From NCBI GenBank assembly GCA_963674755.2, contig CAXXVS010000002.1, positions 224,001 through 288,000 on the forward strand: DNA of 64,000 bases, given 5' to 3'. Source of the stretch: Desulfobacterales bacterium (GTDB lineage Bacteria; Desulfobacterota; Desulfobacteria; Desulfobacterales; UBA5852). Made by a program: the position numbers and the translations under genes. This document shows positions 2,358-15,461 of the stretch, in pieces (position 1 is the first letter of the stretch; the number at the start of each line of letters is the position of its first letter). The notes below the pieces were generated by a model. That model worked only from the letters and a program-made list of their open reading frames with translations. It did not search any database and was not told the origin of the DNA.

Positions 2358-3692
2358 TCAGCCGTTGCGGCAGCGGTGGCGCTGGTTGGGCGGTACCATC
2401 GGTCGCTGCCGGGCCAAAAGCGCCGCGATGGCGGCGGCTGAGCGGGCTGTGCCGCCCTGGTGATTCCGGAGATAGGCGTCGAAAGCTTCCCTTACCGCTT
2501 CCCGCGGTAGGGGCGATGCTACGATCTCGAGAAGGATTTCGGCGGCGTTGCGCCAATCTGCCGCTACCCGCACGAGACCATTGGCAAAAAGGTCCTCGCC
2601 GACCCAGTCAAACGTCTCCCATGAAGGGCCGATGACGGGAACAAGCCCGCAGGGCAATGGCTCCAGGAAATTTTGGCCGCCCAGAGGCGCAAGGCTGCCC
2701 CCCACGAAAGCGCCGCAGGCGGCGGCGTAGGCCTGGGACAATTCTCCGAAGACATCCCACAGGATGACGCTCCCCGGAGGGGCGGTAGCGGTTGTTCGGG
2801 ACCGCAGCTGGCAGGGGATGCCCCCGGATGCGAGGCGCGTCAGCCACGGCCCGATACGGTGCATATGGCGCGGGAAAAGGCCGATGATCAGCTCCGGTCG
2901 ATGAGCGCGCAGATGGCCGATCATCCGGCTGACGGCCTCTTCCTCCTCGCGGCGCACGGACCCCAGCACCACCAGGGCACTATCGGGCGGAATCAATTGT
3001 GCTACCAGATTGGCAGGGTCGCTTTGCAGACCGGCGCGCAGGCGGTCGAACTTCATATTGGGTACAACAGATACGCCCTCCGGGCTGTACAGGCCGGCAT
3101 AGCGGTTGGCATCGGCGGGGCTGACAGCCAGAATGCGCTCGGGCGCCAGGGCGCGCCAGAGATCGGGCCAGACCCGATAATGCCGCAGGCTCCTGGCACG
3201 CATGCGGCCATTCACAATGATGCAGGGAATCCGGCTGCATTTAAGGGTCTTCAACAAGCCCGGCCAGATCTCCGTTTCAAGCAGGACCACGAGGCGCGGC
3301 TGGATGGCGCCGACGGCGGCAGCCATCAGAGAAGGGCGGTCGAATGGGAAATAGGCCGACACGCAACGCGTACCCGTGGGGCCCCCAGGACGGTTGGCGA
3401 TGCCGGCCTCGATGATGTCCTTGCCCTGGCGGGTATTGGTGGTTATCAGGATACGATGGTCGCCGGTTGCCGCCAGATGGTCGAGCAGCATACACGCCAG
3501 GTAGGATTCGCCGGCGGAGGCCGCCTGAATCCAGATGTCGAAGGGTCCCTCCGGGAAAGGCTTTCCGATGCGTTGCGGCAATCCTTCCTTGAGGCGCTGA
3601 TTGCGGCTGAGGAGCGGGATGGCCGCTTGCCAGAGCCATTCATATAATACCAGGGCCGCTTTCACGGACCATGTGAAATCTACCGTTGCCAT
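2358..3692 (-). CDS. waaA: Kdo transferase
   Basis: IWIQAASAGE, YFPFD, ETEIWP, NGRM, PRH, FVGGSL...GGQNFLEP motifs. Confidence 0.92.
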   Translation of the reverse strand: MATVDFTWSVKAALVLYEWLWQAAIPLLSRNQRLKEGLPQRIGKPFPEGPFDIWIQAASAGESYLACMLLDHLAATGDHRILITTNTRQGKDIIEAGIANRPGGPTGTRCVSAYFPFDRPSLMAAAVGAIQPRLVVLLETEIWPGLLKTLKCSRIPCIIVNGRMRARSLRHYRVWPDLWRALAPERILAVSPADANRYAGLYSPEGVSVVPNMKFDRLRAGLQSDPANLVAQLIPPDSALVVLGSVRREEEEAVSRMIGHLRAHRPELIIGLFPRHMHRIGPWLTRLASGGIPCQLRSRTTATAPPGSVILWDVFGELSQAYAAACGAFVGGSLAPLGGQNFLEPLPCGLVPVIGPSWETFDWVGEDLFANGLVRVAADWRNAAEILLEIVASPLPREAVREAFDAYLRNHQGGTARSAAAIAALLARQRPMVPPNQRHRCRNG

Positions 3693-4151: not shown

Positions 4152-4988
4152 ATGGCTGTGCAACATCGTGTTTCGGTTGGTCCTGTAACCTGTGGTTCAG
4201 ACACCTTGTTTTTGATTTCAGGGCCCTGTGTCATCGAAGATGAGTCTATCATGATGCAGACGGCGGAACGATTGAAAGAGCTGTCCCAGCGTCTGAAGCT
4301 GCCCCTGATCTTCAAGTCGTCCTTCATGAAGGACAACCGCAGTGCCATAGAGCATTTCCACGGCCCCGGGCTGGACAAGGGGTTGGCCCTGCTGGCGAAA
4401 ATCCGGGAGACCTTTGATGTCCCCATCATTACCGATGTGCATTTCCCCGAACAGATCGGGCCGACGGCCGCAGTGGCCGACGTGATCCAGATCCCCGCTT
4501 ATCTTTGCATGCAAACCGAGTTGGTGATTACAGCAGCCAGGACGGGGCGGGCCATCAACATCAAGCACGGGCAATTCCTGGCGCCCGCCAACATGATCAA
4601 GCCCGTCCAGAAAATCGAAAGCTTCGGGTATCATGACATCCTGCTGACGGAACGCGGCTATACCTTCGGCTACAATGACCTGGTGGTCGATCCCCGCAGC
4701 TTCTATGAGCTGCGCCAAATCGGCTATCCGGTCGTTTTCGACATCACCCACAGTATCCGCCGCTACGGAATCCCCAGCAAAGATCCCCGGGGCAGCAGCC
4801 GTGAGTATCTCACGACCATCGCCCGCGCCGGTGTGGCCGCCGGCGTCGACGGGGTTTTTATCGAAACCCACCCGAACCCGCCGGAAGCGTTGTGCGATGC
4901 GGCCAGCCAACTGGCGCTCGATCAGATGGAAGCATTCCTCATGCCGTTGATCGAGATTCACAACCTTGTCAAGGAACAACGCGACTAG
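4152..4988 (+). CDS. kdsA: KDO8P synthase family protein with divergent active-site motifs
   Basis: GPCVIE, KSSFMKDNRS, QIPAYLC, TERGYTFGYNDLVVD, DITHS, FIETHPNPPEALCD; RBS AAGGA before ATG 4152. Confidence 0.88.
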   Translation: MAVQHRVSVGPVTCGSDTLFLISGPCVIEDESIMMQTAERLKELSQRLKLPLIFKSSFMKDNRSAIEHFHGPGLDKGLALLAKIRETFDVPIITDVHFPEQIGPTAAVADVIQIPAYLCMQTELVITAARTGRAINIKHGQFLAPANMIKPVQKIESFGYHDILLTERGYTFGYNDLVVDPRSFYELRQIGYPVVFDITHSIRRYGIPSKDPRGSSREYLTTIARAGVAAGVDGVFIETHPNPPEALCDAASQLALDQMEAFLMPLIEIHNLVKEQRD

Positions 4989-5100: not shown

Positions 5101-6126
5101 ATGGATTTATATCTTGATTCGGCCGACTTCAAGGAAATTGAAGAGGCCCTCCGTTTGGGATTTATCAAAGGGCTGACCACAACCCCCACTTTCATGCACC
5201 GGCACGGGATTACCGATATCGATGGTGCCATTGTCAAGCTTTCCGGCATGGTGCCGGAGCTTCAGGTGGAAGCACTGGGGGAAACGCACGACGAAATCGT
5301 CTCCGAGGCCCATCGCCTGCTGGATTTACCTCTGGTCAAAGCGCCCGTCTTCAAGGTGCCCGTCTCCCTTGAAGGACTGCGGGCCTGCAAGACCCTGACG
5401 GACGAGGGCCACCGCGTCAATGTCCATCTGATCTATACCCTGAATCAGGCCTACATGGCGATGGCCGCCGGGGCGGCCTTTGTCTGTCCCCTGGCCGGGC
5501 GGCTGCAGGACCAGGGGCATGAAGCGATTCTGCTCTATGAGCAATGCGTCGATCTGGTGGATCGCTACGACTATCCCACCAAGATCATGTTTTCTTCGGT
5601 GCGCTATCCCGATCACGTCCGGCAGGCTGCCTTGGCCGGCGTGCATGTCTGCACCGTGCCCTGGGGCGTCATGAAGCGCCTCTGCGACAACGCCCTGACC
5701 AAGGTCGGCACCGAGCAGTTCTTCGAACACACCCGCTTGATGACGGTCAAGGTGAAAGACGTCATCCGGGCGAACAATCCCGTCTGCCGCCTGGCGGATA
5801 CGGTGAAGAATGCCCTGGTGAAGATGACGGCCTCGCGCATCGGCGCGGTGACCCTCGTCGACGATGCCGGACAATTGGCGGGTATTTTTACCGATGGTGA
5901 CATCCGCCGCCGTTTGCAGGAAGGCGGCGACGGAATCCTGGACCGCGCCATGGGGGAGGCGGGATTTACGGCCGATCCGGTTTCCATCAATGCCGAGGCC
6001 CTGCTCTATGAAGCGGTCAACGTCTTCAATGCGCGCCAGATCGATAATATCGTCGTCCTGGAAGACAATCTTCCCATCGGGATATTGGATATTCAGGACC
6101 TCGTCAAAATGGGACTTCTGGGATAA
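5101..6126 (+). CDS. Transaldolase/FSA-family domain fused to a C-terminal CBS pair
   Basis: YLDSA, GLTTTP, Schiff-base-type VFKVPVSLEGL, NVHLIY, CPLAGR; then VKDVI...GAVTLVD...GIFTDGDIRR...GILDIQDL, a KdsD-like CBS pair. Confidence 0.85.
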   Translation: MDLYLDSADFKEIEEALRLGFIKGLTTTPTFMHRHGITDIDGAIVKLSGMVPELQVEALGETHDEIVSEAHRLLDLPLVKAPVFKVPVSLEGLRACKTLTDEGHRVNVHLIYTLNQAYMAMAAGAAFVCPLAGRLQDQGHEAILLYEQCVDLVDRYDYPTKIMFSSVRYPDHVRQAALAGVHVCTVPWGVMKRLCDNALTKVGTEQFFEHTRLMTVKVKDVIRANNPVCRLADTVKNALVKMTASRIGAVTLVDDAGQLAGIFTDGDIRRRLQEGGDGILDRAMGEAGFTADPVSINAEALLYEAVNVFNARQIDNIVVLEDNLPIGILDIQDLVKMGLLG

Positions 6127-6131
6127 CCGCC

Positions 6132-6863
6132 ATGGCTACCGATGCTGCCGCAAACCCGCCCTGGTTGAAAATTTTTCAAGGTCTGGGCGGCCAGTTCGTA
6201 ACGCCTCCGCCCCAATTGCGGCAGAAGTTCGTCCGCATCCGGGCGTTGATCTTCGATTGGGACGGTGTCTTCAATACGGGCGAAAAGGGGGAGCAGCAGA
6301 CCAGCTCCTACACCGAGCCCGACTCCATGGGCACCAACATGCTGCGGTTCGGGCTGTGGCTGCCCCAGGAGGTCATGCCGGTGGTGGCGGTCATCACCGG
6401 GGTCGAAAACCGCTCGGCCATGCACCTGGCCCGCCGTGAACATTTCCAGGACGTTTATTTCAGCATCCGCAATAAGGGCCTGGCCGTGACACACCTTTGT
6501 TCGGCCCATGGCATCCGCCCCGATCAGGTGGCCTGTCTTTTCGACGATATCAACGATCTCGAGATGGCCCAGGCCTGCGGTGTGCGGTGCCTGGTAGCCC
6601 GCGGCGCCAGCCCCATGTTCACCCGCTATGTCGTCCGCCGGGGCTTGACGGACTATGTCACGGGGTGCGGGCCCCATCGCCATGGGGTGCGCGAGTTCTG
6701 CGAACTGGCGCTGGCGGCCATGGAACGCTACGATCAGGTCATTGCGGCCCGCATGTCCTGGAACGCGCAATACCAAGCCTATTTCACCCAGCGGCAGGCT
6801 ATTTTGACCAATTTTTACACTCAGAGGGCGGACCAGATCAAACCGGCCGCCAATATTGCCTGA
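6132..6863 (+). CDS. HAD phosphatase, KdsC-like
   Basis: LIFDWDGVF, VITG, K, and FDDINDL HAD motifs; GHGVREFCE-like KdsC tail (RHGVREFCEL). Confidence 0.8.
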   Translation: MATDAAANPPWLKIFQGLGGQFVTPPPQLRQKFVRIRALIFDWDGVFNTGEKGEQQTSSYTEPDSMGTNMLRFGLWLPQEVMPVVAVITGVENRSAMHLARREHFQDVYFSIRNKGLAVTHLCSAHGIRPDQVACLFDDINDLEMAQACGVRCLVARGASPMFTRYVVRRGLTDYVTGCGPHRHGVREFCELALAAMERYDQVIAARMSWNAQYQAYFTQRQAILTNFYTQRADQIKPAANIA

Positions 6864-6915: not shown

Positions 6916-7839
6916 ATGCTGCTGAATAAACTGGCCGGCTGCATCGGCCGCGTGCCGCCTGCCACACTGGGCACCCTGGGACGTGGTATCGGCCGTATCG
7001 CTTATATGGTGGATATCCGGCATCGCCGCATTGTGCTGCAGAACTTGGCCTTTATCTATCCCCAATGGGATTTGCCCCGGCTCCGTCGGATAGCCCGACG
7101 CATTTTTCAGCATTTTGGCGTTGTCCTGCTCGAGATCCTTCAGGCCCCCTTCCTCGACCCCGAGGCGTTGGCGTCAAGGGTTCACGTGGAGGGGGTCGAA
7201 CAGCTCGCCGCCCTCATGGACAATCCGCGGGGCTGCCTCTTGTATTCGGCCCATCTAGGAAACTGGGAACTGGGATTTCTGGCGCTTTCCGCCCGGCTGA
7301 ATCGCCCGGTGACAACGGTGGCCAAACCCATCAAGCTGCAAATAGCCCATGCCTGGCTGACCGCCCTGCGCTCCCGCTTCGGGAACCGAGTGGTGTTCAA
7401 GGATGGCGCTCTGCCGTTTATGATCCAGGCCCTGCGCAAGGGGGAGACTGTCGGCGTGCTCATCGATCAGGGAGTCCGCCGCAAAGAAGCCGTAGAGATC
7501 TCTTTTTTCGGGAAGCACTCCCTGGCAACACCGGCCGCCGCCTTGCTGGGACTGCGCTGCCGGGTGCCGGTGGTGCCCTTGTTCTGTGTGCGGGGGGGCG
7601 ATGGGCGTTACCGGGTCAAGGTCTACCCGGCCGTAGCATTCGAACGCTCGGCCTCTTTGCACAGCGACATCACCGCCTTCACCCAAGAGCTGCTTCACAT
7701 CCTGGAGGATGTGATCAAGGCGTACCCCGAGCAATGGTTCTGGTTTCACAAGCGCTGGAAGCGAACCCACCCCGCGCTTTATCCCGAATATCGTGAACTG
7801 TTGCGCAAAAAACGCCTCAGGAAGGGGCTGCCTGAATGA
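6916..7839 (+). CDS. Lipid A secondary acyltransferase (LpxL/HtrB family)
   Basis: AHLGNWE, LIDQ, FFG, PEQWFWFHKRWK. Confidence 0.9.
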   Translation: MLLNKLAGCIGRVPPATLGTLGRGIGRIAYMVDIRHRRIVLQNLAFIYPQWDLPRLRRIARRIFQHFGVVLLEILQAPFLDPEALASRVHVEGVEQLAALMDNPRGCLLYSAHLGNWELGFLALSARLNRPVTTVAKPIKLQIAHAWLTALRSRFGNRVVFKDGALPFMIQALRKGETVGVLIDQGVRRKEAVEISFFGKHSLATPAAALLGLRCRVPVVPLFCVRGGDGRYRVKVYPAVAFERSASLHSDITAFTQELLHILEDVIKAYPEQWFWFHKRWKRTHPALYPEYRELLRKKRLRKGLPE

Positions 7840-9620: not shown

Positions 9621-10319
9621 TCAAGCCTGGCTGTTGTGTTGCGCAGCAGATGCTGTAAAATAGGCCTCATAACGTTCGCGCAGCCGCCGCTCGTTAGAGG
9701 ATGGCAGCTCGGCGGAAGCGCAATAGGCGTCAATGAAAATATGCCTTGCCGGCGACAGGCAGCCGAGATCGGAATCATAGCGAAACAAATGGCGCAGGTT
9801 GCGGATGCGCAAATTTAGCGTAAGGGGGCCGCGCCGAAAACGCATATCCGCGATGTCGATCAGCCCGACTTGACTGCGGGGCGTCAGCACCACGTTGCCG
9901 AAGTGGATGGACCGGAAATAAATTCCGCTGTGATGCAGTCGTTGAAAAAATATCCCCAATTGGCTGGCCAGCTGCCGGTCGATGGCGTGATGTTCGCAGT
10001 GCTCACGTAGCGTTTGACCCTCAAGGGGGCTGTAATGGACAGCGGTCCGCTGCAGGGCGACGATTTTGAAGACCCCCTGGATTTCCACCGTCGGAATATC
10101 GGCGGTTTGAAGCCTGTGGGCATGACGCCGGAAGCGAATAGGGTAGGGAACCAGGCGTGCAGATGTCAGCAGCCGCTTGATACGAAATAATTTGAGAATG
10201 CTTTGGTCCCTGAGGCGCAGAACCTTGGGTGAAAGCTGGCCATCGACGTATTCACTCGACAAAATTTCAGCACCCTCAATGAGATCGTAGTACCGCGCCA
10301 GAGGAACCGACTGCATCAT
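9621..10319 (-). CDS. LPS-kinase-like protein
   Basis: PKVLRLRDQSILKLFR, FRSIHFGNVV, GLIDIAD; resembles the PA4998/Ttg8-type kinase of Pseudomonas waa clusters. Confidence 0.7.
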   Translation of the reverse strand: MMQSVPLARYYDLIEGAEILSSEYVDGQLSPKVLRLRDQSILKLFRIKRLLTSARLVPYPIRFRRHAHRLQTADIPTVEIQGVFKIVALQRTAVHYSPLEGQTLREHCEHHAIDRQLASQLGIFFQRLHHSGIYFRSIHFGNVVLTPRSQVGLIDIADMRFRRGPLTLNLRIRNLRHLFRYDSDLGCLSPARHIFIDAYCASAELPSSNERRLRERYEAYFTASAAQHNSQA

Positions 10320-10425
10320 GAATCCTTTATCGTTTGCGGTTTGCCCTCGTGTGACCGTGTGATTCATACTGCTTGGCACCGCTGTTCAAACATGAAAAGG
10401 CCGATGGGGGGTACAATTGTTGGCG

Positions 10426-13970: not shown

Positions 13971-15461
13971 CTAAGGATAGCGTTGGCGGCCTTGCGGTGC
14001 CGTATCGAGCGCATCCGTCAGCCGCTCCGCCATTCCGGTTATTTGGTGGTTAACCTCACGCAAACCTCTCCAGTTGAGTTGCAGGCGTCTTAGATCTTTA
14101 CGGAAAGCCCGTTTGAATTTGGCTGGATTGCGATGAGCTTGCATTCCGTCCAGGTCCACCAAATAGAGTTGGTTTGAGGATATAAGGAAATTGGTCGCTT
14201 TGAAATCACCATGGCTGATTCGTGCTCCGGCTAACTGCATAAGAAGCGTCTCCAGTTGACCGAACCAATGGGCAATGGCTAGGGGCTGGTCGATTCTGGC
14301 GCGAATGATCCGATCAATCGTTTCTCCCGGCAGATAGGCCATTATGAAATAGGCTCGTCTCCGAATCCACCCCCATCTTTCTTCAATCACGGCCAGCGGC
14401 CGCGGTGTGGCAATCCCTATAAAACGAAGTCGCTGTGCGTTCTGCCAGGAGATCATGGCCCGGCTGGGACGCAGGCTGCGGCTGAGGGCATGGACCCTGT
14501 TTTTGATGTTGTAGCGCTTGACCACAACATCCTGACCATCGACGGAACATCTTGCAACCGTGGCACTGTTGCCGGCTTTGAGAATGGTGCCGGTCTCGAT
14601 GAAGGCATCCGGATCGTTCAACAGGGGCTGGAAGACGGGGGTATACCATTCGCGGTCACATGCTATGAATCGGCGCCATTGCTTGCGGACGACAAAGGCT
14701 GTGCATGACCGCCGCGTTTTGGGGAGAAAGCGTTTTAAGCGCCACGCTCGCCAGCGCTGGATAGCCGCGTTGATGTCGTGGTAGACGAGGGATTGGGGCG
14801 GCCAATTGCGGCAGGTGCGATAGACTTCCAGCAAGGGGGGCACCAGGGCGTCAAAGCTTGGCTGAAACTGGGCGAAAAACAGGGCCAGATTGGAAAGGCT
14901 GTGCCGCTGGGAAAGCGGTACAGGGCCGGGCTTTTCGATATCATCGCCATCGATGACCATCACCTGGTTGCCCGCTATCAGAAAATTGCCGGGATGGATA
15001 TCCCGCTGTCTGAGGCCGGCCGCATGCAGCCCGGCGATGGATGCCACCACGGGCCGTAGCGTCTCGAACCGTCCCTTGGCGCTGCACCGTCTCAGGCGTT
15101 CGCTTAGGTCCGCAAAACCGCACATTTCACGGACCAGGAGCACGGGGGCCTGACCATCCGCCAGTCGCCCCTGGAAAAGAATGTCGGGCGTAGGGATCCC
15201 GGCCGCCCTCAGGGCTTCGATTCCCTGCCGCTCCCGTCGGTAGTGTCGTTCGGCGCCTGACGGGTCAAGGAAGAGTTTGGCGACGACCGGCACGCCGTCG
15301 GCTCGCGTGCCGGAACAGACCAGACGTTTGCCGGGCAGATGTCGCAGCACAGCGGTGCATGTCAGGCGGGAAGGGCCTTCATCCGTGCACAGAACCAATT
15401 GAAACGGAGTCGGCATCCCCCGTTTCGCATCGCGCAGCGTGCGGGTTTCAAAGCGGCGCAT
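13971..15461 (-). CDS. LPS kinase with two tandem kinase-like domains
   Basis: AKLF...RDIHPGNFL...IDGD, then VKRYN...HGDFKATNFL...VDLD. Confidence 0.8.
   Translation of the reverse strand: MRRFETRTLRDAKRGMPTPFQLVLCTDEGPSRLTCTAVLRHLPGKRLVCSGTRADGVPVVAKLFLDPSGAERHYRRERQGIEALRAAGIPTPDILFQGRLADGQAPVLLVREMCGFADLSERLRRCSAKGRFETLRPVVASIAGLHAAGLRQRDIHPGNFLIAGNQVMVIDGDDIEKPGPVPLSQRHSLSNLALFFAQFQPSFDALVPPLLEVYRTCRNWPPQSLVYHDINAAIQRWRAWRLKRFLPKTRRSCTAFVVRKQWRRFIACDREWYTPVFQPLLNDPDAFIETGTILKAGNSATVARCSVDGQDVVVKRYNIKNRVHALSRSLRPSRAMISWQNAQRLRFIGIATPRPLAVIEERWGWIRRRAYFIMAYLPGETIDRIIRARIDQPLAIAHWFGQLETLLMQLAGARISHGDFKATNFLISSNQLYLVDLDGMQAHRNPAKFKRAFRKDLRRLQLNWRGLREVNHQITGMAERLTDALDTAPQGRQRYP

Follow-up and report, generated by a model that had tools for sequence, protein, structure and literature searches.

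A transaldolase-fold protein with a KdsD-type CBS tail as a probable replacement for KdsD in Kdo synthesis

Introduction

Kdo is needed for lipopolysaccharide (LPS) in most Gram-negative bacteria. To our knowledge, the SIS-type isomerases, KdsD and its relatives, are the sole source of arabinose 5-phosphate (A5P) described for Kdo synthesis. The 64,000-nucleotide stretch of Desulfobacterales DNA analysed here (the window) raises the question of whether there is a second source. Next to kdsA it carries a gene for a fusion of a transaldolase-type barrel and a CBS pair, which an initial annotation read as a domain displacement in the kdsD slot, supplying A5P by aldol chemistry. A literature search that covered few subscription papers found no report of such a fusion or of a transaldolase-type replacement for KdsD. 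We asked what the fusion replaces, what it makes, and by which reaction.

Results

The fusion is encoded by a single ORF of 341 aa that runs from ATG to TAA (5101-6126, +) immediately downstream of a purine-rich, RBS-like stretch, and is a genuine gene. Its first 211 residues (5101-5733, +) are predicted to form a small (beta/alpha)8 barrel of the TAL/FSA type with a rebuilt active site, residues 3-211 matching TAL_FSA (Pfam PF00923, E 7.5e-32). Residues 212-341 (5734-6126, +) form a predicted regulatory tail, a KdsD-type CBS pair, with two CBS stretches (PF00571, E 5.3e-15). The best matches to residues 212-340 are the CBS pairs of KdsD/KpsF proteins (TIGR00393; PDB 4o9k, 3fna and 3k2v), and the solved structures nearest to the tail are likewise CBS pairs of A5P isomerases (4o9k, E 1.7e-16). 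Only positions 153-265 of the TIGR00393 profile are matched, at 66.9 bits against a cut-off of 203.7, and Pfam finds no SIS domain in the protein. A tree built from CBS pairs placed 20 rows from fusions and 8 from KdsD together on the same side of a branch with 98/97 support, the comparison group being 8 other CBS pairs from the window's genome and six outgroup rows being long; on their side of that branch, the separation of fusion from KdsD rows was not clean.

For the barrel, the nearest solved structures are small TalC-type transaldolases (1vpx, E 5.6e-35) rather than the fructose 6-phosphate aldolase FsaA (1l6w, E 4.7e-14), and phmmer aligns it to 1vpx, 3r8r and 1wx0. An AlphaFold2 model of the fusion built from a 30-row alignment reached a pLDDT of 91.5 and superposed on the B. 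subtilis transaldolase 3r8r with a VIA Z of 29.3 (rmsd 1.3, 193 residues aligned), the Foldseek and VIA match lists covering the barrel half of the model only. The architecture is thus as the initial annotation described it, with a C-terminus like the KdsD CBS pair and a transaldolase/FSA domain in place of SIS, and every motif that it cited (YLDSA, TTTP, VFKVP, CPLAGR, GIFTDGDIRR and GILDIQDL) is found in the translation.

The fusion gene is surrounded by genes for Kdo and lipid A. Directly upstream lies a variant kdsA (4152-4988, +; TIGR01362), the genome's sole Kdo-8-phosphate synthase gene, whose product we call KdsA*. Downstream come a gene for a divergent and longer KdsC-like HAD phosphatase of 243 aa (6132-6863, +; NF007019, E 1.1e-11, below the cut-off) and one for an LpxL-like lipid A acyltransferase (6916-7839, +; PF03279, E 2.1e-59), so that ORF coordinates, Pfam and family profiles agree with the gene order first reported. 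On the other side, divergently transcribed, is a gene for the Kdo transferase KdtA/WaaA (2358-3692, -; PF04413, E 5.5e-41), followed in an LPS core context by a GT9 heptosyltransferase-like gene (1327-2556, -; PF01075) and a gene for a Kdo/WaaP-family kinase (644-1330, -; PF06293). The LpxL-like gene was found in 10 of 81 fusion loci, the window counted, and is local context rather than a fixed member of the cassette.

Both Pfam domains are present in all 120 of the best homologs listed (69-90% identity), and a pattern scan of GTDB returned at least 595 matches, with 585 of the 595 matches listed encoding a relative. This is therefore not a chance or one-genome fusion. The best 80 of the at least 595 matches were labelled Desulfobacterales, Gammaproteobacteria, Bacteroidota, Scalindua, Anaeromyxobacter, Gemmatimonadota and other groups, and a HMMER search of 50%-identity representatives brought in distant fusions (31-41% identity) and barrels without CBS domains. 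Databases name the homologs transaldolase, TalC/MipB aldolase or CBS-domain protein. The class of genome G036 (Thermonema) has a fusion homolog in 35 of 201 sampled genomes, at least two of them decayed, and one viral contig (L156) bears a CBS-less copy with no kdsA within 5 kb.

Linkage to kdsA and kdsC holds across the family. Among the loci of those best 80 GTDB matches, 68 have a kdsA, directly upstream of the fusion in 66 and directly downstream in 2, while 57 have a kdsC-like homolog and 49 a kdtA homolog. Five of the 12 loci without kdsA have less than 2 kb of upstream sequence, and six of the genomes behind the other seven carry the variant kdsA elsewhere. A kdsA was likewise present at 68 of 80 metagenome loci. 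Other neighbours recurring over the 81 loci were GGDEF-EAL genes (19), ABC transporter parts (12-13), S1/P1 nuclease genes (12) and KdsB-like genes (6). Across the 80 GTDB loci and the window, we found no metabolic gene recurring near the fusion other than those for Kdo and LPS, and no plausible substrate-supplying gene among the recurring neighbours; an enzyme that lacks a partner gene in this way would be expected to use a common metabolite as its substrate.

The source genome, 97.4% complete in 3 contigs, appears to make use of Kdo, given that it has kdsB and, in the window, kdtA. It has one kdsA and one kdsC-family match, both within the fusion cassette. A search with TIGR00393 for kdsD identified no SIS-type kdsD: apart from a single weak SIS match, all that it returned were matches to the CBS region. 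We also considered an A5P isomerase hidden among the SIS proteins of this genome, but its four SIS matches turn out to be GmhA, an RpiR-like regulator and a pair of large GlmS-like ORFs, one of which adjoins kdsB; one of the four may have a side activity. The genome has two further transaldolases, an ordinary TalC (327.7 bits, over the TIGR00875 cut-off) that keeps N, T, S and F at the donor and catalytic-water positions and a large transaldolase, as well as two transketolases and two RpiB genes. A search of the 97% complete genome for FolB gave no match.

Relatives with canonical genes have kdsA-kdsC flanked by a conserved divergent gene on one side and lptC on the other; each of the four kdsD loci that we examined lay away from kdsA-kdsC. 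In the source genome, lptC abuts the conserved divergent gene directly (C2:318.2-318.5 kb), and tblastn found no remnant of kdsA, kdsC or kdsD at this lptC locus. Since the native kdsA, kdsC and kdsD are all missing and lptC abuts the divergent gene, we conclude that the three-gene cassette, about 88 kb away, replaced all three. For this genome we therefore reject a domain exchange in situ at the original site of kdsD, and the literal domain displacement first proposed is unsupported, as kdsD sits elsewhere in relatives. The GC content of the cassette (0.57-0.61) resembles that of the genome (0.58), and by this measure the cassette is no recent arrival.

We then compared the presence of the fusion and of kdsD across genomes. 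In the order of the source genome, 7 of 141 genomes carried the fusion, 121 carried kdsD, none carried both and 13 carried neither; of the latter, 8 also lacked kdsA and 5 had a canonical kdsA. In the order of G036, presumably Cytophagales, the fusion was present in 36 of 91 genomes (with one internal stop in 3 of the 36 matches), kdsD in 42, both in none and neither in 13. All 13 of these also lacked kdsA, and each of the 78 kdsA-bearing genomes (78/78) carried exactly one of the two genes. Over both orders, the 232 genomes, mostly MAGs and with kin that are not independent, comprised 43 with the fusion, 163 with kdsD and none with both. A canonical kdsD elsewhere, which would have spoken against the initial reading, is thus absent both from the source genome and from the company of the fusion in the two orders. 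A set of 50 fusion genomes, picked from the 80 GTDB loci and spanning many phyla, included 3 with a full kdsD, each along with a canonical kdsA, and 1 with a SIS-only match. The exclusion of fusion and kdsD is near-complete, but it is not an absolute rule.

The KdsA encoded beside the fusion is itself unusual. At 327.1 bits it scores above the TIGR01362 cut-off of 314, but it has KDNRS, LCMQ, KHGQF and HSIRRYGIPS where control proteins have KANR[ST], LCRQ, KKGQF and HS[VI]Q, and the canonical motifs KANR[ST], PAFLxR and HS[VI]Q are absent from it. All 66 aligned fusion neighbours share KDNRS, LxMQ, KHGQF and HxxR[KR]YGIPS, as well as Arg203 (66/66), whereas KANR[ST], LCRQ and HS[VI]Q were found at 24 of 24 control kdsA loci and KKGQF at 23 of 24. 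The changed sites presumably help to bind A5P and to form contacts between subunits. By alignment to 1fwn, they are Ala47, Arg106, Lys125 and Gln188 of the A. aeolicus enzyme. Judged by these motifs, KdsA* is a separate KdsA subfamily.

KdsA* accompanies the fusion in 7 of 7 genomes of the source order, 36 of 36 of the G036 order and 49 of 50 from many phyla, a coupling tighter than free A5P would demand. This makes it possible that the substrate of KdsA* is other than A5P. Three observations, each from few genomes, point back to A5P as the product of the fusion. First, two closely related genomes, G219 (one 7.0-Mb contig) and G250, have a full KdsA* as their sole KdsA, an intact kdsD and, as to transaldolases of this kind, only an ordinary TalC; their KdsA* gene adjoins a long KdsC gene and lies near kdsB. 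This combination, found among sampled genomes only, suggests that KdsA* probably accepts A5P made by KdsD. Second, the rebuilt barrel adjoins a KdsA of the KANRT type at three loci (L157, L159 and L161) and on two viral contigs (L154 and L155), and other loci have intermediate KdsA motif sets, so that the changes are graded across the family. Third, genomes G408 and G463, in which we found neither kdsA nor kdsD, have only a decayed fusion that has lost Asp6, Lys85 and His109, which ties its catalysis to Kdo synthesis. A complex prediction for KdsA* and the barrel from two 39-row alignments scored 0.00 and is counted neither for nor against a pairing.

Compared with TalC, the barrel keeps Asp6, Thr26, Glu57, Lys85, Asn107, Arg134, Ser166 and Arg168, in keeping with the Asp and Schiff-base Lys that the initial annotation had recognised. 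Five positions are changed: position 28 has Thr for Asn, 55 has Gln or His for Ser, 109 has His for Thr, 129 has Cys for Ser and 131 has Leu for Phe, the last being the Leu already noted at the position that discriminates TAL from FSA. The window protein has Thr28, Gln55, His109, Cys129 and Leu131. Four points go beyond the initial annotation: the His at 109, the Cys at 129, the transaldolase-type Glu57 that is still in place, and the variant character of the neighbouring KdsA.

In homologs from the sampled loci, Glu57, Lys85, Asn107, His109, Leu131, Arg134, Ser166 and Arg168 are present in 166 of 166 and Asp6 in 163, with gaps in the other 3. These counts are partly by construction, Thr26-Thr30 being part of the GTDB scan pattern and His109 of the metagenome pattern; the His109 count in GTDB rows is independent of the scan pattern. 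Position 28 is Thr in 157 of 166 and Asn in 9, and these 9 retain His109, Cys129 and Leu131. As position 28 varies and Thr26-Thr30 lies within the scan pattern, the family signature, read from the alignment, is His109/Cys129/Leu131 rather than TTTP. Cys129 itself is present in 162 homologs and replaced by Thr in 4 (L084, L086, L090 and L092), so it is no essential base, and a role as obligatory catalytic thiolate or metal ligand is likewise weakened.

In the T. acidophilum transaldolase, Asn28, Thr110, Ser130 and Phe132 presumably surround the donor and the catalytic water, and this TalC-type set is absent from the fusion. One study of FSA describes Lys85 as the covalent catalyst, with a pKa of 5.5, a catalytic water that is held by Gln59, Thr109 and Tyr131 and whose organisation decides between aldolase and transaldolase activity, and a donor pocket lined by Asp6, Asn28 and Ala129 (PMC13259622). 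In place of the Gln59-Thr109-Tyr131 triad the fusion has Glu57-His109-Leu131. Set against that account, the rebuilt positions correspond to the FSA catalytic-water triad and donor pocket (N28 and A129), and the phosphate end is unchanged. The fusion scores below the cut-offs of both relevant profiles, with 152.2 bits against 245.95 for TIGR00875 and 82.9 bits against 306 for the FSA profile NF009296. By residues and profile scores, the barrel is neither a standard transaldolase nor an FSA.

Discussion

What does the fusion do? That no genome in the two sampled orders carries both it and KdsD suggests that it likely makes A5P. Taking this together with the linkage to kdsA and kdsC and with the KdsA* evidence, we consider A5P very probable as the product, and, leaving the chemistry aside, it is probable that the fusion replaces KdsD by making it. 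The A5P supply proposed in the initial annotation therefore stands as to role, while the aldol chemistry attached to it has become weaker.

For the reaction, we tentatively favor an epimerisation of ribose 5-phosphate at C2, with Lys85 forming a Schiff base, a choice among one-step chemistries that rests on residue positions. Ribose 5-phosphate differs from A5P only in its configuration at C2, and A5P shares the configuration of carbons 2-6 of fructose 6-phosphate (F6P). According to the title of PDB entry 3upb, a transaldolase can bind A5P covalently. Lys85 could thus bind the C1 aldehyde of an aldopentose phosphate, whose carbons would take the places of carbons 2-6 of F6P; Asp6 and the Arg134/Ser166/Arg168 site, both unchanged, would serve as before, and the C1-hydroxymethyl pocket would be left empty. 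The pocket so vacated is the site of His109, Cys129 and Gln/His55. The Glu57-His109 pair, in space opened by Leu131, would do the work of Tyr131 and the catalytic water. Inversion at C2 would follow one of two courses, either deprotonation and reprotonation by way of an enamine or retro-aldol cleavage and renewed aldol addition with the C2 unit staying bound. KdsD is under feedback control through its CBS pair, with CMP-Kdo as the feedback ligand, and the CBS pair of the fusion may exert similar control. The overall chemistry of Schiff base, Glu57-His109 pair and C2 inversion is possible rather than probable, as is the full picture of a CBS-controlled ribose 5-phosphate 2-epimerase on a transaldolase fold, co-adapted with KdsA* and giving a KdsD-independent entry into Kdo.

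The nearest competitor, which we regard as unlikely, is a direct analogue of KdsD, in which the barrel would isomerise ribulose 5-phosphate (Ru5P) by way of an enediol to give A5P, with Glu57, His109 and Lys85 as the catalytic residues and no productive Schiff base. Triose-phosphate and phosphoglucose isomerases have Glu, His and Lys in their catalytic sets, which the residues at the C1-C2 end of the barrel recall; the substitutions are concentrated around the C1 pocket of the donor, the two RpiB genes of the source genome would supply Ru5P, and the KdsD-type CBS tail is retained. However, Ru5P with its C2 at Lys85 would, in the F6P register, fall one carbon short of the phosphate site, and Cys129 is variable among homologs. 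A nucleophilic Lys85 would also tend to trap the ketose, judging from the pKa given for FSA in PMC13259622.

An octulose transaldolase fed by transketolase is improbable as a route to A5P. It would suit the transaldolase-type Glu57, the absent Tyr131 and the two transketolases of the source genome, and Asn28 to Thr could fit an inverted C5; transketolase is reported to make ido-octulose 8-phosphate from glucose 6-phosphate and F6P (PMC5854111). Yet an ordinary dihydroxyacetone donor needs no rebuilt C1 pocket, Asn28 is kept beside His109/Cys129/Leu131 in the 9 of 166 homologs, and no transketolase accompanies the cassette in the 80 GTDB loci and the window.

Rather improbable, too, is the chemistry of the initial annotation, an FSA-like aldol addition of free glycolaldehyde to glyceraldehyde 3-phosphate. 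E. coli FsaA does act as an aldolase on A5P, both in vitro and within an engineered pathway (PMC9947464); His109 could serve for Tyr131 as proton shuttle, and an aldehyde donor would fit well with a C1 pocket that is filled. What this route loses is the Tyr131 and Gln59 of FSA, which are missing from the fusion (Leu131 and Glu57), and a supply of glycolaldehyde: FolB, as noted, has no match in the source genome, no candidate source recurs across the 80 loci, and two viral loci with adjoining barrel and kdsA have no such gene among the ORFs scanned. The epimerase is accordingly placed ahead of it as the favoured reading, on residue positions.

A private pair, with the fusion and KdsA* handling an aldose phosphate other than A5P or passing on a bound intermediate toward Kdo or an analogue, is again rather improbable. 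Five invariant changes in KdsA*, presumably near the aldose site and the subunit interface, would speak for it, as would the company that KdsA* keeps with the fusion even when unlinked and the divergence of KdsC. The two genomes with KdsA* beside an intact kdsD weigh against it, as do the five loci with a KANRT-type KdsA, the graded changes in the family, and the fact that kdsB and kdtA are ordinary family members. Other routes from the fusion to A5P are very improbable as a group. Barely credible is an ordinary transaldolase lodged by chance in an LPS operon, with A5P from an unrecognised isomerase: its fold, Asp6, Glu57, Lys85, phosphate site and database names are transaldolase-like, but the genome already has an ordinary TalC and a large transaldolase, the fusion reaches 152 bits against the TIGR00875 cut-off of 246, and both the exclusion of kdsD and the decay without kdsA would go unexplained.

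If the epimerase reading is true, a second entry into Kdo has travelled in cassette form across many phyla and into viral contigs. A widespread non-homologous replacement of KdsD would fill the missing-kdsD gap, which spans 36 of 91 genomes in the G036 order; several hundred "transaldolase" annotations would need correcting, and inhibitors directed at KdsD would miss the fusion-bearing organisms. Should a His109/Cys129/Leu131 barrel epimerise or isomerise a pentose phosphate, this would be a third reaction type for the transaldolase/FSA family.

Compared with known systems, the cassette is probably a variant of the Kdo pathway and the reaction of its enzyme probably new. With KdsD/KpsF/GutQ (SIS plus CBS pair) the fusion has in common the CBS pair, a similar length and the linkage to kdsA and kdsC; the two are complementary in genome presence and would yield the same product. 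It differs from them in having no SIS domain, its catalytic half being an unrelated transaldolase-fold barrel, and in being accompanied by a variant KdsA and a divergent KdsC. The fold is shared with the small decameric TalC transaldolases of B. subtilis (3r8r), T. maritima (1vpx), T. acidophilum (3s0c) and T. thermophilus (1wx0), to which the barrel is about 31-34% identical and with which it shares Asp6, Glu, the Schiff-base Lys and the phosphate Arg/Ser/Arg; it is set apart by His109, Cys129, Leu131, mostly Thr28 and Gln/His55, by the CBS fusion and by the Kdo context. E. coli FsaA (1l6w) has the same fold (VIA Z 27.3, rmsd 2.4, 215 residues aligned) and Lys85, and it can both make and cleave A5P (PMC9947464), but the fusion lacks its Tyr131 and Gln59 and is farther from it in sequence than from TalC. 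A precedent for repurposing a small transaldolase is the sulfofructose transaldolase (8bc3, 8bc4; PMC7491151; E 1e-16 to the fusion), which is still a dihydroxyacetone transferase, has no CBS pair and works in a catabolic context.

A second kdsA in cassette genomes

Among the cassette genomes in which no kdsD was found, 9 of 10 second, canonical-type kdsA copies read PALLCRQ in place of the PAFLCRQ of the canonical control loci, the sole exception being L254 (genome G252). Nine of these second copies lie at loci L137-L144 and L274, in genomes G026, G011, G014, G027, G034, G022, G033, G009, and G397. This Phe-to-Leu change spans three phyla, affecting the same single site in unrelated lineages. 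Phe is retained in all three second kdsA copies from cassette genomes with kdsD.

Rebuilt barrels on viral contigs and dead-barrel fusions

The rebuilt barrel is also present on seven viral contigs (L154, L155, L156, and L237-L240), with the CBS pair present or absent, and kdsA adjoins it on six of them. No kdsA was found near the barrel of the remaining contig, L156, where the neighbors are radical SAM, aminotransferase, and methyltransferase genes.

Some fusions have lost Asp6, Lys85, and His109 of the barrel; these are still intact open reading frames with a conserved CBS pair. They include L275:5889-6890 (G408) and L277:4239-5246 (G463), as well as P0129, P0133, P0138, and P0159. We did not find kdsA where these dead-barrel fusions persist. 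A fusion that has kept its CBS pair in this way is possibly a catalytically dead sensor.

Genes around the cassette

The KdsC-like phosphatase of the window (6132-6863, 243 aa) belongs to a longer, divergent subfamily, scores far below the KdsC cut-offs, and its subfamily is a traveling companion of the cassette; at L020 and L022, no such gene separates lpxL from the fusion. In the window, the cassette is embedded in an extended LPS core locus made up of glycosyltransferases and several Kdo/WaaP-type kinase-like ORFs (together including 644-1330, 9621-10379, and 13971-15461, the first being the one covered by the domain scan). At gammaproteobacterial loci, among them L031, L036, L041, and L044, two kdtA-like genes often bracket the cassette, one per side.

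Contig C3 of the window's own genome encodes two very large GlmS-like SIS proteins of 1256 and 1510 aa (L244:4829-9360 and L245:2439-6971), the first directly 3' of kdsB. Finally, two genes lie upstream of kdsA*-kdsC*-kdsB, the variant kdsA and divergent kdsC-like genes with kdsB, in G250 (L248:3239-5573) and G219 (L247:6763-9103). By family matches, one encodes an aminotransferase of the DegT type and the other an alcohol dehydrogenase of the iron type, a pair that resembles KdnA/KdnB, for 8-amino-Kdo.
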